Shown one piece after another: positions 17,528 to 39,596 of a stretch of DNA of 64,000 nucleotides. The DNA lies in the NCBI RefSeq assembly GCF_011045215.1, contig NZ_CP049201.1; one strand, 5' to 3'. The stretch comes from Escherichia coli. GTDB taxonomy: Bacteria; Pseudomonadota; Gammaproteobacteria; Enterobacterales; Enterobacteriaceae. Made by a program: the position numbers and the translations under genes. How positions within the stretch are numbered: the stretch's first letter is position 1; each line of letters opens with the position of its first letter. A model generated the notes under the pieces. It was given only the letters and a program-made list of their open reading frames with translations. It made no database searches and was not told the DNA's origin.

Positions 17528-17603
<76 letters not shown>

Positions 17604-17742: not shown

Positions 17743-17829
17743 GCCCGGATGGTGGAATCGGTAGACACAAGGGATTTAAAATCCCTCGGCGTTCGCGCTG
17801 TGCGGGTTCAAGTCCCGCTCCGGGTACCA
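17743..17829 (+). tRNA. leuZ: tRNA-Leu (anticodon TAA)
   Basis: GCCCGGATGGTGGAATCGGTAGACACAAGGGATTTAAAATCCC...GGGTTCAAGTCCCGCTCCGGGTACCA; long variable arm typical of tRNA-Leu; its 3' 55 nt are duplicated at 39473. Confidence 0.95.
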
Positions 17830-17898
17830 TGGGAAAGATAAGAATAAAATCAAAGCAATAAGCAGTGTCGTGAAACCACCTTCGGGTGGTTTTTTTGT
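17775..17898 (+). repeat. attL: 124-bp direct repeat (3' 55 nt of leuZ plus 69 nt downstream including terminator hairpin)
   Basis: Identical by eye to 39473..39596; sequence diverges immediately outside both copies. Confidence 0.85.
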
Positions 17899-18370
17899 AT
17901 TTGTATTTTGAGCAATGGCGGTAGAGTGGCGGTGGTGTGGCGATATGCAGAAACAACAATGGTAGTGCACGTGCTGTTTAAGCTCTAAGGATGAAGCAGA
18001 ATTCTCCTGCAGCTCCTCCGTATTTCGCATAGTGAACCAAGACTTCGGTTAAACAAAATTTTTCTGGGATTTTTCCACTCGACTTCATTTTTCCTCCAGT
18101 CATCCACCAAAGGTACCTGCGCTAATCTATCTTTTTTAATCTGACAACATCCTGAGAAAAGGCAAATTCGTCAGATTTACTGTTTTTTCTACTGCTTCGA
18201 ATGCCGATGTCTGCAGTACTGATAAGAGCTCTATCTCTTTGATATAGATCTTTTATTTGATGAATTGCTCGACATATTATCGTTATGACACCTTCTTGTT
18301 AAAGGTGTTGTACTCCACATCTCGATTTTATGATGTGGGTTATGATTGGTTAGTAATAGAGTGTATCGGT

Positions 18371-18652
18371 ATGCGATGTGGTTTATTAATGGCAATCTGC
18401 TTTTGTTTGGTATCTTTTAGTGGGTATGCAGCAACAGGAAAGTCTGATGTTCAGATCAAGAAAGAAATAATTAAAGAATCCATTGAATCATATCCAGGCA
18501 ATTGTGCGTGTCCTTATAATCATGCAAGGAATGGTAGTAGGTGTGGTGGACGCAGTGCATATAGCCGTACTGGAGGGTATGATGTGGTATGTTATGAGAG
18601 TGATGTTACTGATGAAATGATCCGGCAATGGAAGCAGGAGAATGCTGATTAA
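18371..18652 (+). CDS. small Cys-rich secreted protein of unknown function (prophage cargo)
   Basis: ORF 18257..18652; probable start MRCGLLMAICFCLVSFSGYA (signal peptide) followed by GNCACPYNHARNGSRCGGRSAYSRTGGYDVVCYESD; AT-rich; followed by hairpin terminator 18729..18761. Confidence 0.5.
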   Translation: MRCGLLMAICFCLVSFSGYAATGKSDVQIKKEIIKESIESYPGNCACPYNHARNGSRCGGRSAYSRTGGYDVVCYESDVTDEMIRQWKQENAD

Positions 18653-18843
18653 TTACTTTTGACTGGTTTGTTTTGCGAGCATTATGTGTGTTGTTAACGG
18701 TACCCTAGCTAAGTGAGAGTTCCAAAATAAAACCCGCAGTTTTTACGCTGCGGGTTTTATTGTTTCTGTCGATGGGATAGGGTGCCACTTCGGCCAGCCT
18801 TGGCAACCGATTGACGGGGGATTACTCCCCCGTCGCGGTTTCC

Positions 18844-18984
18844 TTACTGCTTACACTGTAAGAACGCCGCAAACTCCGCTCCCCAGAAGCTCATCCGTAT
18901 TTCACACAGCGAACCGTGCAGCATCCAGATGATGAGGATTACCGTCACGCAGAACGTGATGGCCGTAAGCGATTTTTGCGACAT
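18844..18984 (-). CDS. Hok/Gef-family type I toxin (46 aa)
   Basis: Manual translation MSQKSLTAITFCVTVILIIWMLHGSLCEIRMSFWGAEFAAFLQCKQ: single TM helix followed by SLCEIR and ...AAF motif as in Hok/Gef; AGGAG-like SD upstream; too short for the ORF track. Confidence 0.7.
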   Translation of the reverse strand: MSQKSLTAITFCVTVILIIWMLHGSLCEIRMSFWGAEFAAFLQCKQ

Positions 18985-19165
18985 AGCGCTTGCTCCTTTT
19001 TAGGGGAGGCGCTAACCTATCACTTGCTAAGGTTAGATGGTTAGGGCCTCGGTTAAACAGGGATGTTTTCCGGGGCCTTTCCACATCTGGCCTTCGGGCA
19101 TACCCTCCGACCATCAGCCGAAAGGCACCCGCGCGTAATCTATCGTTTTTTTGTTGCTTCGGCAA
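18902..19165 (-). other. mok-like overlapping reading frame upstream of and overlapping the hok-like gene
   Basis: 87-aa ORF in another frame that starts upstream of and runs across the hok start, the arrangement seen for mok in hok/sok loci; sequence itself not recognisable. Confidence 0.35.
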
Positions 19166-19174
19166 TTCTGCTCG

Positions 19175-19435
19175 TTAATTCTGAGGTAAAGGCAAACTCA
19201 TCTGATTGTTTCCCCTGTGTGACGTTGGCAGTTCATGCCACGGGATACCTTCTGAAGATCGAACGCCTGAGGTGTGTTTCGATGTGAATTTATGGAAAGC
19301 TTCCAGTGTTGAGAAGCATACGCCGCATTCCAGGTTGTTACACTGGTAATACTTTTGTCGGACGGTGTTTGAATCATTTTCCGGACGACTTGTGCGGATA
19401 CGGGCAGATGCGCCACAAAGCGGACAACGGAACAT
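19175..19435 (-). CDS. ogr: Ogr/Delta-family zinc-finger late-gene transcription activator
   Basis: MFRCPLCGASARIRTSRPENDSNTVRQKYYQCNNLECGVCF: CPLC...CxxxxC pattern and layout as in P2 Ogr (MFHCPLCQHAAHARTSR...YHQCQNVNCSATF). Confidence 0.8.
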   Translation of the reverse strand: MFRCPLCGASARIRTSRPENDSNTVRQKYYQCNNLECGVCFSTLEAFHKFTSKHTSGVRSSEGIPWHELPTSHRGNNQMSLPLPQN

Positions 19436-19678: not shown

Positions 19679-21077
19679 ATGGCAAAAAATAACAATGATA
19701 AAATGCGGGCAAAGTATAGGCCGTTCATAAATATATGGGAACATCTTCCTTCTGAGTTCAATGAACTCATCAAGACGTTAATGGTGCTGATACGGCAAGG
19801 GGAAAATGTGGGAGCTCAGCAAAGGGAGCTTGATTCCATCGAAAACTTCAAACACCTGTTAAGTGGATGGAAGCGGGCGCAAAGGATCATAGCTGATGAA
19901 CTCATTATCAGGCTTTCTCAAATCAAGGATCTGGAGTTAGAAAAGAATTGTGCCCATTCAAAAAAGGACTATGAAACAAAGAAGAAGTGTATACGCAATA
20001 TTGAAAGGACTAGACTAGAAATTAGGATTTTACGTAGGTGCATTGATTCAATTGTATGGGCGATATTCCGCAATGAACACTCGTCTATAAGACGTTTACC
20101 TATAAATAGAAATACTGACAATCTGACAATATTTAATATACATGATTCAATGGTGGTAGCAGATGAAATCAATGCTGATCCGATGGCTATAGCTGTTATC
20201 ACTGATATTACTACGTTTGTACATACTGGTGATTTACTTGCGTTAATACCTCAGCAAGGCATAACTTTAATTGAAATAAAAAGTGGTAAGAAAAATATAG
20301 AGTTTTCAAAGGCGGCTATGTTCTCAGTGCAAAGTAAATGTCTTCATTTTGATGAGATTTATAGAAAAGACCTTGATAAAAATGACTTGAAACACTATGA
20401 CAGAGCTAAGCGTCAACTTAAAAGAGCTCAAAATGTGATAGATGTCATTGAGACTGGTAAGGGATTTGATAACTTTTTTCAGTCTCAAGTAACAATTCAT
20501 GACAGAGATTTTTGTCCCGATTTTTATACAGATAAGATTATTGAGCTTTGGTATGAGATATATAACGGTAAAACTTGGGCGATTACTGACATTAATGATT
20601 GTTTATTCCTTGGGGCATATATTAATTCTAATATGGGTTTTTGCGGTTTTAATGGATGGATGGAGGTATCTAGAATATCGGGGAGAGTGGTTTAATATTC
20701 TTGATAGCTTTTCAGATGCTTTATCACGTCCATTTTTTAGTTTGAACCTACCTGATAAATTGCTTCTGGATATCATTAATGGCAATCTAATTGTTGTGCT
20801 GTGTTTCGATCATCGTCGTTTCGTAGAAAGAGCAAATAAAAAATACCCCGGGATTTATGAGTTATTGGATTTTCCATCTCCGAAGATTAATCCTATGAGT
20901 ATGCTTTCCATCAATGGGAAGGGGGTAGTTTCTAGTGTTGATGGACAGAGTGTTTTTATTGGAAATGGTTACGAAACTCGGATTATTTTTGATCAGCAAT
21001 ATCCAGATAGTCTGATTAAGTGGTCATACCATATGAGTGATCTCAAAAAAATATTGATAAAAAAAAGCGTAAAATGA
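19679..21077 (+). pseudogene. ~470-aa cargo protein with PD-(D/E)xK-like nuclease motif, interrupted by a frameshift near 20660-20690
   Basis: ORFs 19655..20695 and 20499..21077 overlap in different frames; protein-like sequence continues across frames around the direct repeat ggatggatgg; motif HTGDLLALIPQQGITLIEIKSGK (D ... E-x-K); AT-rich; upstream palindrome ttacacttt/taagtgtaa (19612..19629). Confidence 0.5.
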
Positions 21078-21272
21078 AAAAGGAAACGCAAAGAAAAATA
21101 AAAGAGAAAAGAAAACGTAGCAGAAAACAATGCTTAAACTAACACATCTAATGCTTTAATTTGCTTTACTGTTACAATGTCCGCTTACTGGTACAGGGCG
21201 GACTGCCATATTAGATTTGGTTCTATCTCGTAAGAGTGGCCGTTCAGGTCTGCACTAATACATCTGAATGGT

Positions 21273-22382
21273 TCACTCTGTTTCTGCTATCCATTCCGGG
21301 ATTTTTGCTTCAAGCTCAAGCTGCGTGGTAAAGCCGCTGTTATCAATGGTGTGCTCGGCTTTTGCAATAATCCAGTCCTGATTATCAATCTCGCTTTTAA
21401 ATCCTGTTACCGTGCCATGCATTTCGGGGTAGAGTTCTGCGCGTCCGCGTGCCAGTGTGATGGAGAATGATGCGGCTCCGCGTTGTAGTTGTTGCCACTT
21501 TGCCGCCGCTGCGCGTCTTGCTGCCTGCTCGTTCTGATAAGTCTTGCGTAACACAAACACATTGCCTTCCGCGCCTTCCATATAATCACCTTCACGGCTG
21601 CTGCTTTTCTCTTTTTTCGGTTTTGGCGGTTTGCGGCGTTTCACGCTGACTTTTTTCTTTTTCCCGTAATTAAGATCAAGCCAGTAAGCGCGTACCCCCG
21701 TATACGCCTCGCGGTCAGCAATGCGGAACTGATGGCGATCGCCGCTGCTGCGTGTGATGGCGAACGAGGGCAACGGCTGGCCCTGTGCGTTCACGCCACC
21801 GCCGGGCATGATGAATAACAGATTACCGCTTTTTACCGTGGTGATTGCGCCCAGCATTTCCGCCATGCGCGTAAGGAAGGACATGTCACTTTCTTCGGTC
21901 TGGTCGGCGTGGTCGATTTCGATATCCATCAGCATTTCGCTGATTTGCGGTTTCAGACCGTACCGATGAGCGATGGCGGATACCACACGCTCAACGGTCA
22001 CATCATGCCAGGACATCTCACGTTTAACGTTAAATTCATCCCGAAAATCTGCGCTTCTGGCTGAAACAGTCAGCCTGTCCGGCGGTCCTTCGTGTGCGAT
22101 TTCATCAACAATGTAAGAGCCTTTTTCTGTCAGCGGTTCGCCTTTCCAGCCAATGAGAACCGTCAGGCGCGCGCCCCGTGGCGGTAGCCGCAACTGACCA
22201 TCCGCATCATCCAGCGTGATGGTGAGCTGGTCTGCCTCAAATCCCCGGTTGTCGGTCAGCGACAGGCTCATCAGGCGCTCTGCCACGCCGGACAGCGTTT
22301 TACCCTCCGCGAGAATATCAAAATCCGGCATTTTTACGGGGTCTGTGCCCTGACTGAGCAATTGCATGGTGGTGTCGGTCAT
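21273..22382 (-). CDS. P2 gpD-like tail protein (late control gene D)
   Basis: ORF 21273..22514; probable start MTDTTMQLLSQGTDPV...; P2 D-family by recollection and by position next to the tail-gene block. Confidence 0.8.
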   Translation of the reverse strand: MTDTTMQLLSQGTDPVKMPDFDILAEGKTLSGVAERLMSLSLTDNRGFEADQLTITLDDADGQLRLPPRGARLTVLIGWKGEPLTEKGSYIVDEIAHEGPPDRLTVSARSADFRDEFNVKREMSWHDVTVERVVSAIAHRYGLKPQISEMLMDIEIDHADQTEESDMSFLTRMAEMLGAITTVKSGNLLFIMPGGGVNAQGQPLPSFAITRSSGDRHQFRIADREAYTGVRAYWLDLNYGKKKKVSVKRRKPPKPKKEKSSSREGDYMEGAEGNVFVLRKTYQNEQAARRAAAAKWQQLQRGAASFSITLARGRAELYPEMHGTVTGFKSEIDNQDWIIAKAEHTIDNSGFTTQLELEAKIPEWIAETE

Positions 22383-22539: not shown

Positions 22540-23724
22540 ATGAGTGAAACTCGTTTTCATGGTGCCCGTGTTACGGAAAATACCGACCTGGTAACAGCGA
22601 TTAACGATGTTGATTCCAGCGTTATCGGTATCGTGGCAACGGCGGATGATGCGGACGCGAAGCTGTTCCCGCTGAACAAGCCCACACTGCTGACCCGCGT
22701 CAATGACGTGCTGGGAAAATGCGGGACAACGGGGACGCTTTATCGTGCGCTTAAGGCCATCGCAGACCAGGTGAGCACAAAGGTGATCGTCGTTCGCGTG
22801 GCTGAACACAAAGAAGAAGACGGAAAAACGCAGGATCAACTGGTTATCGGTGGTTCTGAATCTGACGGCAGCTATACGGGGATGTATGCGCTGCTTGTTG
22901 CAGAGCAGGATGAAAGCATCGGATACCGTCCGCGTATTCTGGCCGCGCCGGAGCTGGACACGGAGGCGGTAACAAAATCCCTGTGCGTGATTGCGGGTAA
23001 ACTGCGCGCGTTTGTGTATGCCTCATGTCACGGCTGTAACACGATGGCTGAGGCGATTACCTACCGCCAGAAATTCAACGAACGTGAGGTGATGCTCTTA
23101 TGGCCGGACTTCATCGCCTACAACCCGAAAAGTGGCAAAAACGAAACGTTCCCCGCGCCTGCCTATGCGTGCGGCCTTCGTGCGTACATTGACCATGAGC
23201 AGGGATGGCACAAATCACTGTCCAACGTTCCGGTTAAAAATGTGCTGGGGATGTCGAGGCATGTGTTCTGGTCGTTGCAGGCCGAAGACAGCGATGCCAA
23301 CAGCCTCAACAACAAAGAAATCACGACCATTATTCGTCGCAACGGGTTCCGCTTCTGGGGCAACCGCACACCGGAAACGAACGCCTACATCTTTGAGGTG
23401 TATACCCGAACCGCACAGGTGCTGGCTGATTCAATTGCGGAAGCGCAGTTTGAAACCATCGACAGTCCATTAACACCCGCGAACGTGAAGGATGTTATCA
23501 GTGCCATCAGGGCAAAACTGGATTCGCTGGTTACTGCCGGGAAACTGATAGGCGCGGAGTGCTGGTATGACGTGGTGGATAACAGCACCACGGATTTACG
23601 TCAGGGACGTGTGCGTATTCGCTACAAATATACGCCCGTTCCGCCACTGGAAGACATGGAGCTTTACCAGACGTTTACTGATGAATACTTTGAACCCGCA
23701 TTTGCGGTGCTGGGAGGTGCCTGA
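22540..23724 (+). CDS. contractile tail sheath protein (P2 FI-like)
   Basis: 394 aa; shares FPLNKP, KLRAF, WPDF, EQGWHKSLSNV, GFRFWGNRT, YTRTAQV, YTPVPPLE with P2 FI as recalled. Confidence 0.9.
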   Translation: MSETRFHGARVTENTDLVTAINDVDSSVIGIVATADDADAKLFPLNKPTLLTRVNDVLGKCGTTGTLYRALKAIADQVSTKVIVVRVAEHKEEDGKTQDQLVIGGSESDGSYTGMYALLVAEQDESIGYRPRILAAPELDTEAVTKSLCVIAGKLRAFVYASCHGCNTMAEAITYRQKFNEREVMLLWPDFIAYNPKSGKNETFPAPAYACGLRAYIDHEQGWHKSLSNVPVKNVLGMSRHVFWSLQAEDSDANSLNNKEITTIIRRNGFRFWGNRTPETNAYIFEVYTRTAQVLADSIAEAQFETIDSPLTPANVKDVISAIRAKLDSLVTAGKLIGAECWYDVVDNSTTDLRQGRVRIRYKYTPVPPLEDMELYQTFTDEYFEPAFAVLGGA

Positions 23725-24236
23725 TGGCTGTGCCAAAACATCTTCGCTTTTTTACGCTGTTTGTGGATGGTGAAAACGAAGTGGGTAAGGTGACGTCCGT
23801 CACTCTGCCTAAGCTGACGCGCAAAACCGACAGCTACCGGGGTGGCGGCATGATGGGTGCGGTAAGTATTGATCTCGGTCTGGACGACTCCGCGCTTGAT
23901 GCGAGCTTTGTCATGGGGGGCGCAGTTCGTGAGCTGTTCCTTAAGTATGGCGGCACGATTGACGGCACGCTGCTGCGTTTTGCGGGTGAATACTACACCG
24001 ATGCAGAAAGCGACCTGTATGAAGTCGAAATGCGCGGACGTGTGACGGAAATTGATATGGGGGAAGCCAAACAGGGCGAAGCCACATCACACACTTACGC
24101 CATTAAAAACACCTACTACAAGCTGAGTGTTAACGATCGCCCGTTGTGGGAGATTGACCTGCTGAACTTCATTTACCGGAAGGACGGCAAGGACATTGTG
24201 CCCGATCGCATCCGTTCCGCGCTTGGGCTTGGCTGA
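23724..24236 (+). CDS. tail tube protein (P2 FII-like)
   Basis: 170 aa; SVTLPKLTRK...YRGGGM...LGLDD pattern as in P2 FII; directly follows FI. Confidence 0.85.
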   Translation: MAVPKHLRFFTLFVDGENEVGKVTSVTLPKLTRKTDSYRGGGMMGAVSIDLGLDDSALDASFVMGGAVRELFLKYGGTIDGTLLRFAGEYYTDAESDLYEVEMRGRVTEIDMGEAKQGEATSHTYAIKNTYYKLSVNDRPLWEIDLLNFIYRKDGKDIVPDRIRSALGLG

Positions 24237-24290
24237 TAAGTAATATGCAGGCGGCGCAGTGCGTCGCCTCTGACTGAAAGGAGTTTCCTG

Positions 24291-24656
24291 ATGAAAGAGA
24301 CGAAAAACATCGATACCGAAAACACGGTAGTTACTGACACTGTGAAAGAAACCAGTGAGCGTGGCGTAAAACTTACCCAACCAATTGAGCGAGGCGGCGA
24401 AAAAATCACGTATGTGGAGATCACCGGGGCTATTGAGCAGGCTGGATCTCTGCGAGATTTGTCGCTGTCTGATGTGCTGAATCTGAAAGCGGAATCCATG
24501 TTTACGCTGCTGTCACGCGTGACATCACCGCGACTGGATGAAGTGACGATCAAAAAAATGGCATCCCGTGACTTTATTCAGTTATGTGTGGTTGCCGTAA
24601 ATTTTTTGAGCGGTGCGGACTCTGGCGGGAAGAACGAACAGGCGACGGAAGCCTGA
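24291..24656 (+). CDS. tail assembly chaperone (P2 gpE-like)
   Basis: 121-aa ORF between tube and tape-measure genes; contains the slippery site for E' frameshifting. Confidence 0.75.
   Translation: MKETKNIDTENTVVTDTVKETSERGVKLTQPIERGGEKITYVEITGAIEQAGSLRDLSLSDVLNLKAESMFTLLSRVTSPRLDEVTIKKMASRDFIQLCVVAVNFLSGADSGGKNEQATEA
24602..24608 (+). other. predicted -1 programmed ribosomal frameshift site (TTTTTTG) producing E+E' fusion
   Basis: T6G heptamer inside gpE-like ORF; the -1 frame (ORF 24584..24820) extends to the start of the tape-measure gene, as in P2 E/E'. Confidence 0.6.
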
Positions 24657-24770
24657 TCACGGTTGTGTGCTTTGAGCACATAGAAGACTTTGTGGCGGAT
24701 ATTGCCGCCATTTTTAACTGGTCGCCCGCCGAAATCTTCATGATGACGCCCGGCGAAGTGGTTAGCTGGC

Positions 24771-27614: not shown

Positions 27615-27620
27615 GGAGTC

Positions 27621-29450: not shown

Positions 29451-29484
29451 AAAACTGGACTACAATGGTTTGAAATGAAAGCCT

Positions 29485-30084
29485 TTATGCTTGTTTACTC
29501 CTTGATTCCACTGGGGAAGCAGGCCACTCAATATCCGGTGCTCTTGATGTATCAACACGGTTCAGCAGCACTCGATACTTCTTCCATGCCACCAGTAACG
29601 ATGTTTCTTCCTCTGTTGCAATATTCAAATCTACGGCATCTTGAAGTGGCGAAATATGCTCACTGGCTACCTGCATGAGGCTGTTTTTTGTTTCTTCCGC
29701 CTCCCGTATCCGGAACACTTTTTCTGCTTCTGCATCTTTCACCCACGTTGTGCCGTTCCACTTCTGAAACTCCCCTTCCGGGGATAACCAGGTGACATTT
29801 TCCGGTAATGGACCGAGTTCAGAAATAAATAACGCGCCCCCTGATGCCACGTCATAAACCGTTTTACCACGATGATCTTCAACGAGATGCCAGGACGTCT
29901 TATCACTGTTGAAAATAGCCACGAAGCCAGCTGGAATATCTGGCGGAGAAATATCAGTACTATTTGCAGGTAGACCTGTATGAGGTGGAATGTATGCATC
30001 ACCTTCACCAATAAATTCATTGGTTCCGACCAGCAGATTATAAATTTTTATGGTTCGTGGTTGTTCACTCATTCTGAATGCCAT
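29485..30084 (-). CDS. tail fibre assembly chaperone (Tfa / P2 G-like)
   Basis: 199-aa ORF immediately downstream of the tail-fibre fragment; Tfa-like C-terminus (...[22 protein letters not shown]). Confidence 0.8.
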
Positions 30085-31259
30085 TATGCAAGCCTCACAA
30101 TATAGTTAAATGCGATGTTTTTTACGGTGTTTTCCGCGTTGCCATAAGCGGCAATGGTAATGGTGTGTGTGTGCGAACCAATAGCGAGCGTATGTGTATG
30201 CGCACCTATTGCTACTGTGTGAGTATGAGCTCCTGCGCTTAATACGCGATTACTTGCTGTCTTGCTTGTGTTAGTTGCATGCATTCCACCACCGGTACCG
30301 GGAGTTTCTGCGTATGCTGAAGTATTGTTGTAAGCAAAGTTGTGTGTATGTGCTCCGGTGTTATTTGTGGATTTAGTTCCGTAATCAAACGACGATGTGG
30401 TTTTCGTCCCCAAATCCGTACTGGATGCGCTGGCGCTGTGGGTGTGCGATTTAATGCCGTCCTGTTCCTGAGACAATACGGCTCGACCACTGGCTGGTTT
30501 GCCCTTAATCGTCCAGCCACGCATATCAGGGATCACGCCTGACGGATAAGCGGCTGCAAGTTTCGGGTATGCAGATTTGTCAAAAGTCTGCCCCTGCATC
30601 AGGGCATAACCAGACGGAACGGTATCTGATGGCCACGGGATTGGTGCGCCAGGCGGATAAAACTGCTCTGATGGCGTATAGAGTGAATAAACTGTACCGT
30701 CCGTTAACCCTTCCGGCTTATTAGCAGAATATGCTGGTGACGTATGAATCGTCACGCTGGCATTACTGGTATAATCCCATTGAATATTTACACCAGTCGC
30801 ATAATTTCCGATTGCAACGTAAATATCGTAAGTATCACCAGATGTATTGACCCAGGCAAAATTTGTAAACCCTGTCGATGTGCGCTGCCATAAAGCACCA
30901 GTAATCCCCTTCGGATTACCATTACCTGCACGCAAAACAAGTTCAGATATACCTGCCTGTTGAGGTGAACCGACGTTATATCCAGCCCCACCAATCAACG
31001 TAATTGAAACAACAGAACTCGCCTGCGGCATGGTTACCGTTGCTAATTTGAACCAACCAGCACCACCGCTAAATGACATAGTTGTTGAGTTAAGCGTACC
31101 AATATCTTTCGGTGTCAGTGTTATATCCGCTGAAAGCGCCTTACCATTCACCTTACGGGCAGAAGGTACGGTCTGGCAAGAGCCGCCCGGCAAACGTCCT
31201 GGCATCAGTCTGCGCTTTACTTTAAGCGCAATGTATTGCTCGGTTGCTACATCCCGCAC
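30084..31259 (-). pseudogene. tail fibre protein, C-terminal portion only (N-terminus deleted)
   Basis: 391-aa ORF with HTHT/His-x-His repeats ([24 protein letters not shown]) typical of fibre tips; reading frame runs into the portal fragment junction at ~31236-31259. Confidence 0.7.
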
Positions 31260-32030
31260 CCGCTGCTTTCCCGGCAGGATTTCTCGGCGCTGGCGCTGGA
31301 CTGGTTTGTGTTCGGTAACGCATTCCTTGAGCTTCGGAGCAATATGCTCGGCGAACCACTTAAATTACGGCACGCACTGGCGAAATACATGCGACGCGGA
31401 AGCGATCTTGAATCATGGTGGTATGTGCAGGATGGCAAGGACGCGTTTCAGTTTCGCCCTGGCAAAGTGTGCCACCTGATGAATCCGGACATTAACCAGG
31501 AAATTTACGGCATGCCGGAATATCTTGGAGCATTACTCTCGGCCAGCCTGTCTCATTCGGCGGACATGTTCAGAAAACTGTATTACGACAACGGATCCCA
31601 CGCCGGGTGCATCATCTACATCGGTGCAGCGCAGGTAAACCGCGAAAGCATGGACTCCCTGAAAGAAACGTTACAGGGTGCGCGTGGTGGTGGTGCGTTT
31701 AAAAACGTGCTCATCCACGCGCCCAACGGGGGCAAAGAGGGGGTGCAAATTTTGCCGTTCCAGCAGATCACCGCAAAGGATGAGTTCATGAATGTTAAGG
31801 CGGCATCCCGTGATGATGTGCTGGCTGCGCACCGCGTTCCGCCGCAACTGATGGGGGCGATGCCGGGCGAAAAAAGTGCGTTTGGTGATGTGGAGAAGGC
31901 CGCGCGGGTTTACGCAATTAACGAGCTGATGCCCGTCATGGAGGCTATGAAGCACATCAATGACTGGCTTGGCGAAGAGGTGATCCGCTTTAACCCTTAC
32001 GCACTGCTGGACACCCAGCCCACATCCTGA
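31236..32030 (+). pseudogene. portal protein fragment (P2 gpQ-like, C-terminal part)
   Basis: 264-aa ORF divergent from the tail-fibre fragment; portal-like sequence (…IYGMPEYLGALLSASLSHSADMFRKLYYDNGSHAG…); shorter than P2 Q (recalled ~344 aa); P,O,N,M,L and baseplate genes absent. Confidence 0.6.
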
Positions 32031-32560: not shown

Positions 32561-33091
32561 ATGAAGAAAGATTCATATCCTTATTTGATTTGCATGACTG
32601 TTTCAGTGCTAGGGATTATTTTCCTCTTTTACTGGTGGAGGGCAGATATCTACAGGATTACATATCTTAATTCGCGTATATCCAATTATTACATCTTGTG
32701 TAGTATGGGTATGTCCTTTTTCTTCTCCTTGTTTCTGGTGAAGAGGGGGGTAGTGAAGCAAAGTGGCTGGAAAGGACTGTCGGAATACCTGAAGGTTTAT
32801 GCTGGCTCTTGCATTCTTACAGGGATATTCCTGATTATTCCTCTTATGATGGTGACTTATTTTTTACCAGGAGTAACATCATCATATGTTGCACCGTATG
32901 AGTATACATCTGGTAGTTCAAGAAGCTGTTCCGGAGCGTTTGTTGATGATCCCGAACTGCATAAAAATATTCTTATTTGCTATCCGTATGGTAACTATGA
33001 ATATGACAATATTATCTATGTTGAAAAGAAAACTAATGCATTGGGCGTTGTTGTGACGTATGCACAGACTGCACGAGACGATGCTGAATAA
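32561..33091 (+). CDS. integral membrane protein of unknown function (hotspot cargo)
   Basis: 176 aa, about 3-4 hydrophobic helices then a soluble tail; AT-rich; preceded by TGTGCA-type repeats at 32455..32494. Confidence 0.55.
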   Translation: MKKDSYPYLICMTVSVLGIIFLFYWWRADIYRITYLNSRISNYYILCSMGMSFFFSLFLVKRGVVKQSGWKGLSEYLKVYAGSCILTGIFLIIPLMMVTYFLPGVTSSYVAPYEYTSGSSRSCSGAFVDDPELHKNILICYPYGNYEYDNIIYVEKKTNALGVVVTYAQTARDDAE

Positions 33092-33282
33092 GATACTACA
33101 GATATAGTCCACTTTTTTGTTTATTTGTCGGGATAAAAACAAATTACCCCGACTCACCATGTATTAATCTTCCGCTTTAAGTTAGTATTTTAGCTGCGCT
33201 GTCCTGCTATTCAGCAAAGCGGCGTACTTTAATGCGTCCTGTGCTTTCTGGAATTTAAGTGCATAGTCAGTGGCGATTTTTT

Positions 33283-33564
33283 CTAGTTCAGCGATTCGGT
33301 TGTTTTTGGTTTCCAGCCAATCAAGTAGCGCCAATACTTCAGGATCCCGACATCCAACACTGTTACGCGTGATTTTTCATAATGTTCGTCGGCAAGAGTT
33401 CGGCCAATTTTGAAATCTCCATCATCACCATAACCGGAGCAGGCATAAACAACCTGTGCTCCAGATATTCGCTGAATTGACATTTCCTCGCCGCAAATAG
33501 GGCATTTCGGTACTGGCACAGGTGAATAACGTTCACGTAATGCCTGATAGTTGATTTCGCTCAT
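33283..33564 (-). CDS. small zinc-ribbon protein (possibly frameshifted)
   Basis: MSEINYQALRERYSPVPVPKCPICGEEM...YACSGYGDD; an alternative frame downstream (to ~33182) reads as a coherent helical tail (DPEVLALLDWLETKNNRIAELEKIATDYALKFQKAQDALKY). Confidence 0.45.
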   Translation of the reverse strand: MSEINYQALRERYSPVPVPKCPICGEEMSIQRISGAQVVYACSGYGDDGDFKIGRTLADEHYEKSRVTVLDVGILKYWRYLIGWKPKTTESLN

Positions 33565-33627
33565 TAAGTCGTTCTCCTTGTTTATGTTCTGAGGTGGAGA
33601 GCAGGGCGAACTCGCCCTGATGTTGTG

Positions 33628-33929
33628 TTATTCAGGAAATAACGCCCGGATATTTCCGGCCATCTGACTGGTTATCTGTGCGGTTGATACTGGCTGTGAT
33701 GCGGGGCGTTCTGTCCTGGTTTGTGTCACTGATAACGCTTCATCATCAGCCCATGCAGCTAGTCGGTAAGCCTCTGCCGGATTCATTTTCAGAAGTGCCA
33801 GCCCGGCCAGAAAAGCCACACGTTGGCCGCTTTTGCGGGCTTCTGGTGTAAGGCTGTCCAGCCAGGCGCATGCTTCGCCTTCGTTCTTGACGGCGGCGGG
33901 CTTCAGATAGAAACTTATCCGTCTGGTTG
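33628..33929 (-). CDS. ParR/StbB-like partition adaptor protein
   Basis: From MTTPTRRISFYLKPAA...LDSLTPEARKSGQRVAFLAGLALL...NIRALFPE; resembles plasmid R1 ParR (RRTIAFKLNP...LDSIPQGERSRLNRAALTAGLAL...LRSLFPKE) from memory; lies directly downstream of the parM-like gene. Confidence 0.65.
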
Positions 33930-33943
33930 GTGTCGTCATTGGT

Positions 33944-34893
33944 TTACTCCTTGTCCATTGCGTACAGCCCATTAACCAGAGCAAACTGTGGCACCCCGTC
34001 CGCGATGAAAGTCGCATTAACTCCGCAGGCTTCGCGGATAGCGGGTGCCACAATCTCCGCCCCGCCACCGACAACCATCACCCGCCCGTAACCCGAAAAA
34101 ACCGCCAGCGCGCGGATCACGCGTTGTTTCAGTGTTTCTTCCTTTTCACGAATAACCGCCATCAGGCTGGCGTAATGCGCGTCATTGTGGATGTGTTGGC
34201 GCAACCAGGCTTCATCATGGCGATGTTCGATAATGGTATTGGCGATGTGGTGACTGGTACGCATACCGTTAGCGGCCATCACCGACAGCACGGCACCGGC
34301 CATCAGGGAGACGCCTACGTGTGGATCGCAAAACACCTGGCTGATACCTGCCAGTTGCCCCTGAACCTTTGCCACATCCAGCGTGGTTCCGCCTAAATCC
34401 ACAATCAGCAGGGATTCAAACGGACTCATGTCAGCCAGTGCTTTAAAGCCAGCCGGAATGGATTCAGGCATAACCCGCACGTTACGGATAGTGAATGCTT
34501 CGCCGTTCTGGTACTCCACCGGGCGCATAACGTTCGCTTTTTTGCGGTTGATGTTGGCCATGTCCGGCTGTGCGTTTGTGTCGAAATACTCGCTCAGTGG
34601 CAGGGTGACAACCACATCCACCTCCTGTGGCGTGATGCCTGATTTGACCAGCGTGTGATGAATGGCGATTACATTCACATCGCTGTACTGGTATTGCGTG
34701 TCGGTCGTCTGGACAAAGCGATCGCTGACCGGATCAAAACCATAGCGCACGCCATCAAGCATGTAGTTCGCGGGCTGCATGCCACCGAACGGCGCAGATC
34801 ATTCCGACTTGAAGCTGTTCGGGCTGATGGCGTTGCGGCGTTCGCCATTCTCAGTCCATGCCAGCTTGATGTTGGTGGAGCCGTCGTCGATAC
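33944..34893 (-). pseudogene. ParM/StbA-like actin-type ATPase with in-frame TGA nonsense codon
   Basis: MKICIDDGSTNIKLAWTENGERRNAISPNSFKSE-TGA(34799-34801)-SAPFGGMQPANY...; remainder matches ParM (VMPESIPAGF, IVDLGGTTLD, VMVVGGGAE); the stop replaces the Trp of R1 ParM KREWAVSFG. Confidence 0.75.
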
Positions 34894-34932
34894 AAATTTT
34901 CATGTCGCTTTTCCTTATGTTGATTAATTAAT

Positions 34933-35044
34933 CGTTTACGGGATTCTGAAATCCCGTTTTTGCCTGTTTTGTGTGCGCTTCATATATCGCGGCGCGTTTT
35001 TTGCTCATTTACGGGATTTGTGAATCCCGTTTCTGTCTGTTTTT
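34933..35044. repeat. two ~36-bp direct repeats, each with an internal dyad (acgggatt..aatcccgt), upstream of the parM-like gene
   Basis: tttacgggattctgaaatcccgtttttgcctgtttt (34933..34968) and tttacgggatttgtgaatcccgtttctgtctgtttt (35008..35044); candidate parC-like centromere/operator, or a remnant of a replication origin near the end of gene A. Confidence 0.5.
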
Positions 35045-36533
35045 TGTTTCCACTGGTCAGGCCACCCCGCAGCAGGTCTGCTTTGCGGCGGGCACGTTCA
35101 GTGGTTTCACTGATTCTCTGTGCGTGCTCTGCGTCGCGGATGGCGCGCAGCATGTCAGAAAGCACGGTAACGGGGGTTTTCATGGTGTTCTGGTCCTGCT
35201 GAAGTGTGGATGCCAGACGTGCGGCGGCTTCGAGGTCTGATGCCCCCAGCTGTTCCAGATAGCTGGCGACCGGGTTATGGCGGATCTCCGTGCTGCTTAC
35301 GCCGTGATTACGGCTCAGGCGCTGCCAGAGCTGCGTGATTCGGCTGTCCGGGCGGGTATCCGGTTTGCGTACAATTTCAAATCCCTGCGGTGCAATGATG
35401 CTGCCGTCAACGTACAGGCTGCCGCCCCGTAACAGGTGCTGCATCTGCTGTTCACCGATATGCATGCCGAGAGATTCGGCAGATTCCCGCCATTCTTTAG
35501 CGAGTAATTCGTGGTTATCAGGCAAAGGCCGCTGCTGTTTGCGGCTCTGTGTCCAGCTCTGCATTTCATCACTGCTGTTTTTTGCCTGTTTGTCACGCAG
35601 CGAACGCATCAGCGCCCGGCGTTCGTGCCGTTTCAGTGAGCGCACCCATTCATCCACATCAACGCCGTCAGGAAGCTGCGGCCACGGTGCTGGCCGTTCT
35701 TCCGGCTGTTCTGTCCCGTTGTTGTCCGTTTCCTGTACACGGGGACAGTTATTGCCACGAGTCCAAGGGGCGGCAGGGCCGCTCTGAAGGTCAAAACCAT
35801 TTTCGCGGGAGCTGTCTTCCGCTTCCGGTTTGCGTCTTACCAGCTTCCAGTTATCCGGATGCGTGCATACGCGGGAAGACTCCCCGATGAGCGGCGACCA
35901 GATCCCGTAAATCTGTACACTCTGCTCACCGTAATCGTTCAGTTCATCTGCGAGGTCGTAGGCGGTGCGAATCAGGTAGTCTTTGCGTGGAACAAGCACG
36001 CCACCCTGTTTTTCAATGTAGGTGGCAAAACACCCGGCATCAGCGGCAGCGAGTACCGCATCCATTGCGTCATCCTTCAGCCGTTGCGGGCCTTCCGGGT
36101 TGCGTGCCATCTGGCTGGCAAGGCGGCGCAGTTCACGCCACACCTGACGGGAGGGGATACCAAAGAACTGGAACTGGCGGACCCGGTGAAGGCGCGCCCA
36201 GCCGATGGCGCGTTCCACGCTCTCGGCCATTGATTTTCCGGTTTCGTGGTCAACGCGTGGCTTGCCCGTTTTCGGGTCGATGCCATCCACGGCGCGGCTG
36301 TCCAGGTTCTTTCCGATGTAGGTGGCGATGTAGCTGGTTGGCGTGCCTTTTGAGCCGTCGACGTACTCCGCCTTAAAACGCGGAGTTATGTCATCGCCCA
36401 GCTCGTGGCGGTCTTCCTGAATGGCAATATCGCAGACGTGGGACACGATGGTTTCAATCTCGTCCGGATGTGCAAAGACCATCATATGCCAGTGCACAGT
36501 GCCGTCATGGTGAGGCTCCAGCGGTGTATTCAC
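34980..36533 (-). pseudogene. replication initiation endonuclease gpA-like, N-terminally truncated
   Basis: 517-aa ORF begins within the region matching P2 A (LEPHHDGTVHWHMMVF vs P2 VEPHHDGTPHWHMMVF as recalled); the N-terminal part of a full-length A protein plus cox/B equivalents are missing. Confidence 0.7.
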
Positions 36534-36686: not shown

Positions 36687-36836
36687 CTACTGTGAAATAA
36701 AGGGTGAGCGTTGTTCTTTAGCTGCCATTTCATCAATGACGGCTCGCTCTTCGAGGGACAGCCGAAGTGCCAGTCTTGGACCTGTGGCGGTGTTACGCGG
36801 AATGCGTGATCTGGTATCGTGAAGAACTTGTTTCAT
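36687..36836 (-). CDS. small ribbon-helix-helix-like ORF (49 aa), uncertain
   Basis: Manual translation MKQVLHDTRSRIPRNTATGPRLALRLSLEERAVIDEMAAKEQRSPFISQ: beta-strand/helix pattern of RHH proteins; lies between A fragment and the divergent repressor gene. Confidence 0.3.
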   Translation of the reverse strand: MKQVLHDTRSRIPRNTATGPRLALRLSLEERAVIDEMAAKEQRSPFISQ

Positions 36837-36911
36837 AGTGGTATATTGTGATCATCTAATAGCTCATGAAATCATTTTGGTATCAAAAAAGATACCTGTC
36901 AAGGTTTTTGT

Positions 36912-37316
36912 ATGAAAAATGATATTGGTCAGCGGTTGCGTGAGGAAAGGGAAAGATTGGGGCTTAGTCAAGTTGCTATGAGCGACATTGGTGGAGTCAA
37001 AAAGCTAACTCAGCTTAGATATGAGAAAGGAGATAGCTTTCCTGATGCTGCGTATTTGGCAGCGCTGTCTCGTTTTGGCCTTGATGTTCAGTATGTTGTG
37101 TTGGGAATTCACTCACCTGAAACTTATAACGATGATGAGCAGGAGTTGATTACTCGCTTTCGAGCAGCTTCGTTAGATGTAAAAAACGCGGTGATCGGGG
37201 CTTTAAAAGGTGCGGGCAGTGAAAAGGAAACTCAGCCATCAGGGCGTGAGTTAAATATTTCTGGTGGTAATAACCGTATCGCTGGTCGTGACTATAACGA
37301 AACTAAGGGTAGGTGA
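36912..37316 (+). CDS. XRE-family HTH repressor (P2 C-like immunity repressor) with C-terminal tail
   Basis: IGQRLREERERLGLSQVAMSDIGGVKKLTQLRYEKGDSFPDAAYLAALSRFGLD HTH; divergent from A, co-directional with int as for P2 C; C-terminal ...SGGNNRIAGRDYNE motif repeated in the next protein. Confidence 0.7.
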   Translation: MKNDIGQRLREERERLGLSQVAMSDIGGVKKLTQLRYEKGDSFPDAAYLAALSRFGLDVQYVVLGIHSPETYNDDEQELITRFRAASLDVKNAVIGALKGAGSEKETQPSGRELNISGGNNRIAGRDYNETKGR

Positions 37317-37331
37317 TAGTAGGGAGGTGAC

Positions 37332-37982
37332 ATGGCCGTCAACTCAAACGGTTCAAACAATCGCGTTGCTGGGCGTGATTTTCACGAAAAGAATATTCAG
37401 ATAGAGCGATATGATGGTTCTCATACCGTCAATATCGCAATCCCTTCGAATAATGATGATGACGCTCGCCCTTTGCTTAAGGCACAGCGTAAGGAGCTAA
37501 ATAGCTTGGTTGCTGCTATTGCAGAAGCTAGCAATACTGAAGCGTTTATTATTTGGCAAAAAGTACATGCGGAGATTGGTGTAGCTGGTATTGATGATAT
37601 GACAATAAATCAATATAAAACAGCGGAGAGTTTTCTGCATGCAATGCTTGAGCGATGTAAAGATCATGATGCCTGTAAGACTCTTGTAAGTTTATTACTA
37701 CGTAACAGTGAAGACTGTGGACTTCGACAAAAACTTCTGCGGTATTGCCATATCAATTTCGGTACAGGACGTTTAAACGATCTTACTCGTTCTCAGTTAC
37801 AGTCTGCATTGTCGTGGTTAGAGCAACAATCGGTATCAAGCCACTCAGAGAATTCGACCTTACCAGAAGTTCGCCTTCGTGCTTCAGAATTAATCCGATT
37901 TTATCCAAAAGAAATAATATTCTTTATCTGCGTAGGGGTTTTGGTAGGCGGAGCCATTTCTAGGATGTTTTTTAATTTGTAA
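37332..37982 (+). CDS. tail-anchored membrane protein of unknown function (lysogeny-operon cargo)
   Basis: 216 aa; N-terminal SNGSNNRVAGRDFHE repeat shared with the upstream repressor; single C-terminal TM helix (IIFFICVGVLVGGAISRMFF); strong SD (GGAGGTGA) after three consecutive in-frame stops. Confidence 0.6.
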   Translation: MAVNSNGSNNRVAGRDFHEKNIQIERYDGSHTVNIAIPSNNDDDARPLLKAQRKELNSLVAAIAEASNTEAFIIWQKVHAEIGVAGIDDMTINQYKTAESFLHAMLERCKDHDACKTLVSLLLRNSEDCGLRQKLLRYCHINFGTGRLNDLTRSQLQSALSWLEQQSVSSHSENSTLPEVRLRASELIRFYPKEIIFFICVGVLVGGAISRMFFNL

Positions 37983-38011
37983 TCTTACTTGAGCTAAATT
38001 GAGGCAATGAC

Positions 38012-38359
38012 ATGAAAGTAAAAAAGGTTCAACTATTAGTTGCTTTTTTATCTATGTTTTCTTTTTCCGCCGTCGCAATGCCTTTTAAAACTATTGAACG
38101 TGAGAGTTTCAATGGAGTATGGCCATTTAATACAGATGAGGTTCAATTGCAGTGTCTTGATGGTAATCCTTATGTGATGAATTTTGACGATAATAAGTTA
38201 TATGCGCTTACAGGTTTGGCTCGAATAAAAGGTAAAACATTTGGTGCGTTACCGTTAGATAACAATAATCCATTTTGGCTAGATAATGATGCCGCCCCAG
38301 GGTTAAAAAAGAATCTGGGGGACGTCACTAAGGCTGCATTTGATTTATGTGATAAGTAA
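38012..38359 (+). CDS. YebY-like (DUF2511) secreted/periplasmic protein
   Basis: 115 aa; signal peptide MKVKKVQLLVAFLSMFSFSAVA; ...WPFNTDEVQLQC... and C-terminal ...LC resemble E. coli YebY as recalled. Confidence 0.55.
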   Translation: MKVKKVQLLVAFLSMFSFSAVAMPFKTIERESFNGVWPFNTDEVQLQCLDGNPYVMNFDDNKLYALTGLARIKGKTFGALPLDNNNPFWLDNDAAPGLKKNLGDVTKAAFDLCDK

Positions 38360-38364
38360 CAAAA

Positions 38365-39366
38365 ATGTCGGTTCGTAAAACTCCATCAGGTAAATGGCTT
38401 TGCGAATGTTATCCCTACGGAGCATCGGGAAAACGCATTCGTAAACAGTTTGCGACAAAAAGTGAGGCGCTCTCTTATGAGCGCCGTTTAATGAATAGTA
38501 GAGTTGGAGACGAGTTTCAAGATGGTTCTGGTCCTCGTCTTTCTGAGTTGATTGCTCGTTGGTTTGAGATGTACGGAAAAACCTTGTCCTCTGGTGCAGA
38601 GCGCAAAGTCAAACTTGAGGCGATTTGTTCTAGGCTGGGAGATCCATTTGCTTCTCAGTTTGACAAAAATATGTTTGCTACTTATCGGGAAAGAAGGCTA
38701 TCAGGAGAATGGAATCCCAAGGGGAAGAAAAAACTTAGTGAAGCAACCGTTAATCGCGAGCAGTCATATCTACATGCTGTTTTTGCCGAACTGAAGCGCC
38801 TTGGGGAGTGGTCTGGTGAAAACCCCCTGACTGGAATTCGCAAGTTTCGTGAGGAAGAAAAGGAGCTGGCGTTTCTGTATGTAGATGAGATTGAACGCCT
38901 TTTGATTGCGTGTGATGATTCACGGAATAAAGATTTGGGGGTTGTTGTCCGTATTGGGCTTGCGACTGGTGCTCGGTGGAGTGAAGCAGAAGGATTAAAG
39001 CAATCTCAAGTACTGCCCGGTCGAATCACATTTGTTAAAACTAAAGGAAAGAAGAACCGCACTGTACCGATTTCACCTCAATTGCAGGCTATGCTTCCTA
39101 AAAAACGAGGAGCGCTATTTTCACCATGTTATGAGGCTTTTGACGCTGCAATTAAGAGAGCGAAGATAGAGCTCCCTGATGGGCAATTAACTCATGTGCT
39201 ACGTCACACGTTTGCTAGTCATTTTATGATGCGGGGCGGAAATATTCTTGTGTTGCAAAAAATACTGGGGCATAGCGATATAAAAATGACTATGCGTTAT
39301 GCGCATTTTGCTCCGGGTCATTTAGAGGCTGCTGTTGAATTAAACCCTTTTGACAATAGAGGGTAA
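38365..39366 (+). CDS. int: phage tyrosine integrase
   Basis: 333 aa; C-terminal catalytic region HVLRHTFASHFMMRGGNILVLQKILGHSDIKMTMRYAHF (R...HxxR...Y); ~110 bp from attR. Confidence 0.9.
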   Translation: MSVRKTPSGKWLCECYPYGASGKRIRKQFATKSEALSYERRLMNSRVGDEFQDGSGPRLSELIARWFEMYGKTLSSGAERKVKLEAICSRLGDPFASQFDKNMFATYRERRLSGEWNPKGKKKLSEATVNREQSYLHAVFAELKRLGEWSGENPLTGIRKFREEEKELAFLYVDEIERLLIACDDSRNKDLGVVVRIGLATGARWSEAEGLKQSQVLPGRITFVKTKGKKNRTVPISPQLQAMLPKKRGALFSPCYEAFDAAIKRAKIELPDGQLTHVLRHTFASHFMMRGGNILVLQKILGHSDIKMTMRYAHFAPGHLEAAVELNPFDNRG

Positions 39367-39472
39367 AAAGTGGCGATAAAAAGTGACAATAGATTCAAAT
39401 GGCGTCGTATAGAGCTATTTGCAAAGTTAATAAAATCATAAGGTTATGATTTATAAATGGTGGTTGATAGTT

Positions 39473-39596
39473 TTTAAAATCCCTCGGCGTTCGCGCTGTG
39501 CGGGTTCAAGTCCCGCTCCGGGTACCATGGGAAAGATAAGAATAAAATCAAAGCAATAAGCAGTGTCGTGAAACCACCTTCGGGTGGTTTTTTTGT
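39473..39596 (+). repeat. attR: second copy of the 124-bp repeat (partial leuZ 3' end 39473..39527 plus downstream terminator)
   Basis: Identical to 17775..17898. Confidence 0.85.

Follow-up and report, generated by a model that had tools for sequence, protein, structure and literature searches.

A decayed P88-like Peduoviridae prophage between leuZ and yecA of Escherichia coli

In a 64-kb stretch of the E. coli contig NZ_CP049201.1 (64,000 nucleotides, hereafter the window), the tRNA gene leuZ is separated from yecA by a 21.6-kb insert. Judged by its gene content and nucleotide identities, this insert is a decayed Peduoviridae prophage, probably of the P88-like branch Xuanwuvirus, a genus in that family, and is closer to those phages than to P2 itself. 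We consider it highly probable (about 0.92) that a phage of the P88/Xuanwuvirus type integrated at leuZ by means of a 186-type integrase and then decayed in the host lineage by deletions. The family at leuZ is already known from many strains, and on the evidence of its deletion junctions the copy described here is an independently decayed allele.

RESULTS

Insertion site and att repeats

To the left of the insert lie uvrC-pgsA-glyW-cysT-leuZ, and yecA-tyrP follow it (Table 1). The insert lies between two copies of a 124-nt direct repeat, which are 100% identical and spaced 21,698 nt apart. This pair was the sole long direct repeat within the 16- to 41-kb region, and a chance origin was ruled out, as a perfect repeat of this length is not expected in 64 kb. 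The block begins at 17775, exactly where the anticodon loop of leuZ starts. Integration into tRNA genes has reportedly been classed by sublocation (Williams, 2002), with the anticodon loop as one of the classes. The leuZ insertion fits this class, since the block runs from the loop through the 3' end of the tRNA, leaving an intact leuZ on the left and a co-oriented fragment at 39473.

In two O157-type relatives (L002 and L007), the divergence of the neighboring phage DNA extends into attL as two SNPs downstream of the tRNA, while the block in attR keeps the host version. Because of this partition, the crossover can be placed within the first 63 nt of the block, the tRNA-proximal part. Strand exchange is predicted to occur, most likely, in or beside the 7-nt anticodon loop. 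Common cores as long as 50 to 110 nt are found in tRNA-integrating P2-like phages with 186-type integrases (PMC3448106).

We found the leuZ-yecA junction uninterrupted, with a single copy of the block, in 3,792 of 5,426 complete E. coli genomes, and the genome search returned exact two-piece matches across the empty junction (H49-H53). The int-attR-yecA junction of the window was present in 523 of these genomes (about 10%), including O157:H7. The best matches among the 5,426 genomes were 98.6 to 99.4% for the flanks and 96.6% over 89% for the element.

The initial annotation had described an interrupted leuZ-yecA junction, bracketed by perfect 124-bp repeats that hold the 3' 55 nt of leuZ and its terminator, and had raised the matter of empty-site alleles. 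The alignment, the coordinates (17775-17829 and 17872-17893) and the genome counts agree with all of this. The long repeat and the distal integrase, which it had singled out as worth documenting, are real but not unusual: both are conventional for P2-like relatives.

Table 1. Features of the insert and its borders, with positions in the window.
Feature	Position	Strand	Evidence or remarks
tRNA-Gly	17528-17603		ARAGORN; Rfam tRNA match agrees
tRNA-Cys	17657-17730		ARAGORN; Rfam tRNA match agrees
leuZ, intact tRNA-Leu(UAA)	17743-17829	+	ARAGORN, Rfam, sequence
leuZ anticodon loop, TTTAAAA	17775-17781	+	Stems 17770-17774 and 17782-17786
attL identity block	17775-17898	+	3' 55 nt of leuZ (17775-17829) plus 69 nt downstream
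Terminator of glyW-cysT-leuZ operon	17872-17893	+	Stem-loop and T-run inside attL block
Candidate arm-type Int sites, three tandem 11-bp	17913-17945	+	CAATGGCGGTA, GAGTGGCGGTG, GTGTGGCGATA; 186 consensus RARTGGCGRTR
93-aa ORF, cargo	18371-18652	+	Signal-peptide-like N-terminus; phrog_27544
hok/gef-family toxin gene	18847-18987	-	100% identical to L001 copy
ogr/delta-like zinc-finger late activator	19175-19435	-	86 aa; 41.5% identity to P2 Ogr over 53 aa
Pseudogene of 487-aa orphan cargo protein	19679-21139	+	~34% GC; frameshifts +1 at 20689, -1 at 21045
gpD late-control/tail protein	21273-22382	-	Full length, 369 aa
Tail operon FI-FII-E-E'-T-U	22540-28115	+	Every gene full length
FI sheath	22540-23724	+	
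FII tube	23724-24236	+	TIGR01611 tail tube match
E	24291-24656	+	
E'	24665-24820	+	
T tape measure	24807-27614	+	TIGR01760 match
U	27627-28115	+	
Glycosyltransferase-family-9-like (GT9-like) cargo	28212-29450	-	~35% GC; phrog_36326 over residues 72-412; weak PF01075
Tail fiber assembly gene	29485-30084	-	Rfam IS009 match inside (29543-29741)
Tail fiber remnant	30084-31169	-	Equivalent to residues 343-729 only
Deletion junction 1	31165-31169		GGTAC microhomology; 11.4 kb lost
Portal remnant	31167-32030	+	Residues 62-348
176-aa ORF	32561-33091	+	Membrane-like N-terminus; phrog_1416 (unknown function)
ead/Ea22-like fragment, partition/stability gene and ParM pseudogene, together	33194-34903	-	
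Partition/stability gene	33631-33939	-	
ParM pseudogene	33944-34903	-	Stop at codon 35
Replication endonuclease gpA remnant	35025-36521	-	Residues 434-932
Deletion junctions 2 and 3	36519-36523 and 36698-36706		Flank 188-bp piece of a 129-aa gene
Lysogeny operon, repressor through int	36912-39366	+	
HTH repressor	36912-37316	+	
216-aa membrane-like ORF	37332-37982	+	
DUF2511 gene	38012-38359	+	
186-type tyrosine integrase (int)	38365-39366	+	phrog_1, E=5e-77
Candidate arm-type Int site, int side	39368-39378	+	AAGTGGCGATA
Weaker candidate arm-type copy, int side	near 39409		AAATGGCGTCG
attR, displaced leuZ 3' fragment with terminator	39473-39596	+	Repeat search, sequence
yecA	39723-40388		Downstream of attR

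Gene content and relatives

Homologues of the Peduoviridae tail and late proteins FI, FII, E/E', T, U and D and an Ogr-type activator are all present, at full length relative to an intact 36.8-kb relative at the same leuZ site (L001). P2 proteins matched at 32 to 49% amino acid identity (tblastn, E-values of 1e-9 to 1e-110), compared with 93 to 97% nucleotide identity to phage relatives over the shared genes. These nucleotide matches span 33 to 54% of the insert; among named Xuanwuvirus members P884B11 has the highest coverage, 49%, and phage Chuche reaches 54%. Genus demarcation by whole-genome identity is inapplicable to a remnant that lacks about 16 kb. Identity to L001 is ~96 to 99% in most segments and 79.5% in the tail-fiber assembly segment. 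The remaining C-terminal part of gpA is 34% identical to P2 A.

The co-directional P2 order FI-FII-E-T-U-D-ogr was not found. Whereas P2 transcribes this F operon in one direction, D and ogr of the insert precede FI on the strand opposite to FI-U, with cargo between ogr and attL. The same order and orientation occur in the Xuanwuvirus members P88, P884B11, 500465-2 and 520873, in Chuche and in the leuZ prophage of E. coli 22AR0750, all of them complete at 33 to 37 kb, whereas the window copy is ~16 kb shorter. Phage 520873 and the intact 22AR0750 prophage also have the int and att module in common with the insert; P88, P884B11 and Chuche lack it, because none matched the int-attP junction query. 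The joined attP, reconstructed as int side, 124-nt block and ogr side, had no free-phage record in the phage collection, where the records with this att were prophage derived and cut at att, alongside unrelated phages with the same block.

The GT9-like gene occupies the slot between U and the fiber-assembly gene where relatives carry acetyltransferases, and the segment with the 176-aa ORF is absent from L001. The 487-aa protein had no family match in Pfam, NCBIfam, PHROG or PADLOC. PADLOC found no defense system among the cargo ORFs apart from weak HTH matches for the repressor, and Rfam found no Sok or other regulatory RNA, its matches being the tRNAs and IS009 only.

Could the interval be a P4-like satellite or a generic tRNA island rather than a prophage? 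Its small size, its location at a tRNA gene and its integrase would fit, and an "integrative element" at leuZ is listed for O145:H28 (PMC7067040). The chance of this is nonetheless negligible. Colinearity with a complete 36.8-kb P2-family prophage, from which the insert differs only by three deletions and cargo swaps, effectively refutes it, and no P4-type primase, sid or psu gene was found in the interval.

P2-protein homology, this colinearity and the deletions sustain the earlier call of a degraded P2-like prophage. Of the ends it had termed P2 type, the positions of ogr toward attL and int toward attR stand, but int is not of the P2 type; ogr is indeed near attL, 1.3 kb inside, but does not directly adjoin it, the 93-aa ORF and the hok gene intervening.

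Integrase and attachment geometry

We classify the integrase as 186 type rather than P2 type because it is 55.9% identical to 186 Int versus 38.4% to P2 Int. The full-length protein differs by 2 residues from the widespread WP_001300279.1, and its gene stops 106 nt short of attR. The candidate arm-type sites at 17913-17945 and 39368-39378 have 0 to 1 mismatch to YAYCGCCAYTY (186 consensus). The whole window contains 34 matches to this motif versus 15.6 expected in shuffled sequence, and it is the local cluster that constitutes the relevant signal. The ogr side of the att block has three candidates and the int side has one or two, resembling the 186 annotation (3 + 2 around the core).

The int-distal layout is common to every relative examined and to the 523 genomes. 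The gene is far from the intact tRNA because, in this phage lineage, it has the same orientation as the tRNA fragment and is read in the direction of attP. Coliphage 186 (Eganvirus) likewise integrates at a tRNA gene and reads int toward attP. However, its target is ileY, the common block is 36 nt long, and the crossover is predicted at the 3' end of the tRNA; with the tRNA fragment of 186 directed toward int, int adjoins the intact tRNA, whereas the window lineage uses the anticodon-loop side of leuZ and 124 nt, with int distal. The 186 repressor and structural genes are only distant relatives. P2 (Peduovirus) shares with the window lineage the position of int and ogr on either side of attP, and its ogr, D, FI, FII, E, T, U, portal, gpA and int are the homologues at 32 to 49% identity, but the integration sites of P2, with a 27-bp core, are not tRNA genes.

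Lambdoid mEp390 (and Fostie) also uses leuZ. The annotated attP of mEp390 is a leuZ 3'-half-plus-terminator block of ~121 nt that starts at the anticodon loop and is 88.5% identical to that of the window. This phage belongs to another family, its integrase is at most a very distant relative (21% identity, E=1e-4), and int is on the side that ends up beside the intact tRNA. In a second P2-like type with a near-identical leuZ block, the D gene abuts attR. Blocks of 121 to 124 nt occur in at least three lineages in opposite geometries relative to int, which would imply that the host segment was captured or exchanged repeatedly and independently. It is a speculative thought that the anticodon-loop attB of leuZ is a convergent target of at least three phage lineages, with blocks captured or exchanged independently, and that the remnant might also be retained for immunity, hok or the GT9-like cargo. 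If true, leuZ would be a natural system for the coevolution of attP orientation and restoration of the tRNA and terminator.

Deletions and decay

Deletions were defined by colinearity with L001. Three, each with microhomology, account for the missing ~16 kb. Genes for the baseplate, lysis, the head and the terminase were lost, together with the early operon and the N-terminal part of gpA. Deletion 1 removed the fiber N-terminus, I, J, W, V, S, R, the lysis genes, X, L, M, N, O, P and the 5' end of the portal gene. Deletions 2 and 3 removed the gpA N-terminus and the early operon with its Cox-like excisionase. None of the three junctions was present among the 5,426 complete E. coli genomes. Of the P2-type module for head and packaging, the portal fragment alone remains, P, O, N, M and L having been deleted; this absence is a secondary loss, because the module is complete in L001. 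Point mutations and frameshifts have made pseudogenes of ParM and the 487-aa cargo gene.

Its gene complement indicates that the remnant cannot make particles or replicate. Use as a tailocin is impossible, the baseplate, spike and fiber N-terminus genes being absent. The Cox-like (recombination directionality factor) gene of the relatives (phrog_575, E=1e-27) has no counterpart anywhere in the 64-kb window; its assignment is by phrog_575 homology and position, as Pfam gave no match for the protein and BLAST did not link it to P2 Cox or 186 Apl. With the loss of this one gene, the remnant is probably locked in the chromosome, although another locus in the genome could provide a Cox-like factor in trans. 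It may still give immunity and express cargo.

The retained proteins are full length and 98 to 100% identical to those of L001 while their neighbors are deleted or broken, and relatives always carry a transferase-type gene in the slot between U and the fiber-assembly gene. Such a pattern might arise if the remnant were selected as a domesticated module, whether for repressor immunity, hok addiction, GT9-like envelope modification or use of the sheath, tube, tape measure, U and D. We regard this as unlikely: high identity may reflect recent decay alone, the junctions private to the window lineage point to recent events, and there was no PADLOC defense-system match.

The O157:H7 element and mobility

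O157:H7 strains Z903 and 53_142304 carry a P2-like prophage at the same leuZ-yecA site, with the same 124-nt att block, an integrase of the WP_001300279.1 kind (2 residues different), the same repressor-orf216-DUF2511-int operon and the same tail operon. Like the window copy, it is ~21 kb long and lacks head, baseplate and lysis genes. In contrast, IS30 and IS3 have inserted into it, its D is truncated and its tape measure frameshifted, and it has neither ogr nor hok, but it keeps the Cox-like, early, derepression (epsilon-like), full gpA and ParM genes, the opposite of the pattern in the window. The deletion junctions also differ, so decay was independent.

From the description in PMC2669165, the O157:H7 element at leuZ is probably Sp13 of Sakai and CP-933T of EDL933. 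Sp13 is the only P2-like prophage in O157 Sakai, without morphogenesis genes and with an epsilon-like gene; though degraded, it excises and amplifies after mitomycin C, and packaging by helper prophages has been reported (PMC2669165). The window remnant might by analogy still excise, circularize and be packaged by helpers, given that attL, attR and the integrase are intact. This appears quite improbable, since, unlike the O157 element, the window copy lacks the Cox-like excisionase, the epsilon-like gene, the early genes and the N-terminal 433 residues of gpA.

DISCUSSION

The features described above are best accommodated by integration of a temperate P88/Xuanwuvirus-type phage followed by decay. 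Its attP would have carried a copy of leuZ from the anticodon loop through the end of the operon terminator, and recombination with the host attB by the 186-type Int would have rebuilt a complete leuZ and terminator at attL, the displaced host 3' fragment becoming attR beside yecA. Three microhomology-mediated deletions (~16 kb) and point mutations in ParM and the 487-aa cargo gene would have followed, sparing attL and attR, the operon from repressor to int, the tail genes from sheath to U, and also D, ogr, hok and the GT9-like cargo.

Beyond annotation, the significance is small: the exact boundaries and gene map of one prophage remnant. The 124-nt repeat can be read as a phage-borne tRNA 3' half and terminator that keeps the glyW-cysT-leuZ operon functional, and int is distal because of the way attP is arranged in the lineage. 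The private deletion junctions may serve as lineage markers. Finally, the contrast with Sp13, which kept its early genes and is inducible, leads to a testable prediction, namely, that the window copy would be immobile.

Identity of the insert

The insert between leuZ and yecA proved to be a degraded P2-family prophage, as the initial annotation had proposed. In megablast searches of phage records, it was 93 to 97% identical to Chuche, Xuanwuvirus P884B11, P88, 500465-2, and 520873, with a coverage of at most 54% of the interval; Xuanwuvirus is a genus within Peduoviridae. An apparently complete 36.8-kb relative, which carries an ISKpn26 insertion, occupies the same site in E. coli 22AR0750 (L001) with identical att blocks. 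P2 itself is more distant, with proteins only 32 to 49% identical for ogr, D, FI, FII, E, T, U, portal, gpA, and int. Furthermore, both the element and L001 have FI-FII-E-E'-T-U on the plus strand and D and ogr upstream on the minus strand, whereas P2 has a co-directional F operon.

A single long direct repeat was found within 16 to 41 kb. Its 124-nt copies were 100% identical on alignment and comprised the final 55 nt of leuZ, as initially annotated, and 69 nt beyond, including the terminator. The repeat starts at the first base of the anticodon loop, given the positions of the loop and the anticodon. The element is bordered by uvrC-pgsA on the left and yecA-tyrP on the right, and both flanks follow the usual E. 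coli chromosomal order, from fliC to uvrC and from yecA to cheA, respectively. Positions 1-17700 (including fliC, fliD, amyA, and yedE to uvrC) and 39600-64000 (yecA, tyrP, araFGH, otsBA, tar, tap, and cheA) are ordinary core sequence, with top identities of only 98.6% and 99.4% among 5426 complete genomes.

Features of the leuZ element and its attachment site
Feature	Coordinates	Strand	Remarks
glyW	17528-17603		ARAGORN; Rfam concordant
cysT	17657-17730		ARAGORN; Rfam concordant
leuZ, tRNA-Leu(UAA)	17743-17829		ARAGORN; Rfam concordant
leuZ anticodon loop	17775-17781		7 nt, TTTAAAA; anticodon 17777-17779; ARAGORN and sequence reading
attL	17775-17898		124-nt repeat
Terminator	17872-17893		T-run, 9-bp stem-loop, inside repeat
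Candidate arm-type sites, ogr side	17913-17945		three tandem, 11 bp
hok/gef-family toxin gene	18847-18987	-	between attL and ogr
487-aa cargo gene	19679-21139		+1 frameshift at 20689, -1 at 21045
Segment absent from L001	28152-29603		holds GT9-like gene
GT9-like gene	28212-29450	-	35% GC; between gpU and tail-fibre assembly gene
Rfam IS009 (RF02111)	29543-29741	-	full-length match, 187.7 bits
Deletion junction 1	31165-31169		GGTAC microhomology; 11.4 kb lost
Segment absent from L001	32483-33194		holds 176-aa ORF, phrog_1416
Partition/stability partner of ParM	33631-33939
ParM-like plasmid-segregation gene	33944-34903	-	premature stop at codon 35
Deletion junction 2	36519-36523		1.36 kb lost, including gpA N-terminal 433 residues
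Deletion junction 3	36698-36706		early operon lost, including 67-aa Cox-like gene
Candidate arm-type site, int side	39368-39378		weaker copy near 39409
attR	39473-39596		124-nt repeat

Decay of the element

Mapping by blastn and tblastn against L001 revealed that colinearity is interrupted by three deletions. The first removed the tail-fibre N-terminus, I, J, W, V, S, R, lysC, lysB, the endolysin, the holin, X, L, M, N, O, P, and the 5' end of the portal gene. None of the three junctions occurs in any of the 5426 complete E. coli genomes; thus, within this collection, the decay is private to the lineage of the window. Two further genes are broken: the ParM-like gene by a premature stop and the orphan cargo gene by two frameshifts 356 nt apart. 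The ParM/partition pair belongs to the phage family of the element but is missing from P2 and 186.

Because the requisite genes are absent, particle formation and lysis are impossible, and the truncation of gpA makes replication very unlikely. The 67-aa gene lost at junction 3 matches phrog_575, "Cox-like excisionase and repressor" (E=1e-27), and no counterpart of it was found anywhere in the 64-kb window. Its loss points to a defect in excision. The P2-like Sp13 of O157 Sakai lacks morphogenesis genes, yet it excises, amplifies after mitomycin C, and gets packaged (PMC2669165). The leuZ element of O157:H7, presumably Sp13, has retained a full gpA gene along with the Cox-like, early, and derepression genes, whereas the copy described here has lost the Cox-like and early genes and has a truncated gpA.

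Retained genes and cargo

The 93-aa ORF, hok, ogr, D, FI, FII, E, E', U, the HTH repressor, orf216, DUF2511, and Int are full length and 98 to 100% identical in protein sequence to L001. The tape measure is also full length (91% identical), and the fibre-assembly protein, whose C-terminus is divergent, is 77% identical over an alignment of 188/205 residues. The repressor-int operon, hok, and the cargo may still be expressed.

Two segments have no counterpart in L001. One holds a glycosyltransferase-family-9-like gene (phrog_36326; weak PF01075) in a slot filled in relatives by a "transferase" or "serine O-acetyltransferase". Given these varying genes, the slot resembles a variable moron locus for envelope modification. 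The IS009 match falls within the coding sequence of the tail-fibre assembly gene and probably represents an "sRNA" family derived from a prophage gene rather than an independent RNA gene.

The cargo ORF, located between ogr and D, has a GC content of ~34% and is intact in 22AR0750 (L001 4480-5943); its protein had no match in Pfam, NCBIfam, PHROGs, or PADLOC. The hok gene is 100% identical to the copy in the relative, and no Sok RNA was detected at the Rfam gathering threshold.

Integrase and crossover site

The 333-aa Int is 55.9% identical to Int of 186 as opposed to 38.4% for P2, differs from the widespread WP_001300279.1 by 2 residues, and, as read from its sequence, carries the expected R, H-x-x-R, and Y motifs. 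The tandem candidate sites in the ogr-side arm of attP fit the 186 consensus RARTGGCGRTR on the int strand; together with those on the int side, they mirror the annotated 3+2 layout of 186.

In the O157-type relatives L002 and L007, attL and attR differ at two positions, both downstream of the tRNA. The attL variants continue the divergence of the neighbouring phage DNA, and attR is the host version seen at empty sites. This pattern indicates that the segment of attL rightward of the tRNA came from the phage and that crossover occurred in the first, tRNA-proximal 63 nt of the block. Since the block starts exactly at the anticodon loop, strand exchange would take place in or beside it. Williams in 2002 reportedly recognized an anticodon-loop sublocation class of tRNA-gene integration, to which this element would belong.

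Repeat length and integrase position

The initial annotation had singled out the long repeat and the position of int distal to the intact tRNA. Both are real, and both have parallels. P2-like phages with 186-type integrases insert into tRNA genes through common cores that are long (50 nt in one example and 110 nt in another), preserve the tRNA, and extend variably past the gene (PMC3448106). Here, the extension stops with the operon terminator, and this terminator must also be replaced by the phage copy. The same leuZ block (121 nt, 88.5% identical) is present in the annotated attP of the lambdoid phage mEp390, where it again begins at the anticodon loop, even though the integrases of mEp390 and the element share only 21% identity. 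The long block is thus a feature of the site rather than the element. The mEp390 copy (L005 2501-2619 versus window 17775-17898) contains a paired T-stem change, GCGGG...CCCGC to GTGGG...CCCAC, so a chimeric leuZ would keep its base-pairing after integration.

In the lineage of the element, int points toward attP and has the same orientation as the tRNA fragment; as a result, the ogr side adjoins the rebuilt leuZ. This int-distal layout was common to all relatives examined. In 186 and mEp390, by contrast, the tRNA fragment points toward int, which places int proximal to the intact tRNA. The P2-like vB_EcoM-705R4 has the opposite orientation to the element, with gene D adjoining attR and yecA. 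Thus, both geometries occur at one attB. Since the deposited vB_EcoM-705R4 "phage" sequence includes yecA as well as the attR block (L006 2029-3916), it is a prophage excerpt with host DNA.

Occupancy of leuZ in E. coli

The attB query was rebuilt by joining the left and right flanks through a single copy of the block. The uninterrupted leuZ-yecA junction, regarded as normal in the initial annotation, was present in 3792 of the 5426 complete E. coli genomes, and exact two-piece matches of 303 bp to the empty site were obtained (H49-H53). The int-attR-yecA junction occurred in 523 genomes of the same set. Hence, ~30% of genomes, or roughly 1630, have something at leuZ, and about one third of those have the integrase type of the element. 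In STEC O121 and O145, leuZ has been named as a site of prophages or integrative elements (PMC8767318, PMC7067040). The prophage family and its tRNA site are both well known, and the element represents a new allele that decayed independently.
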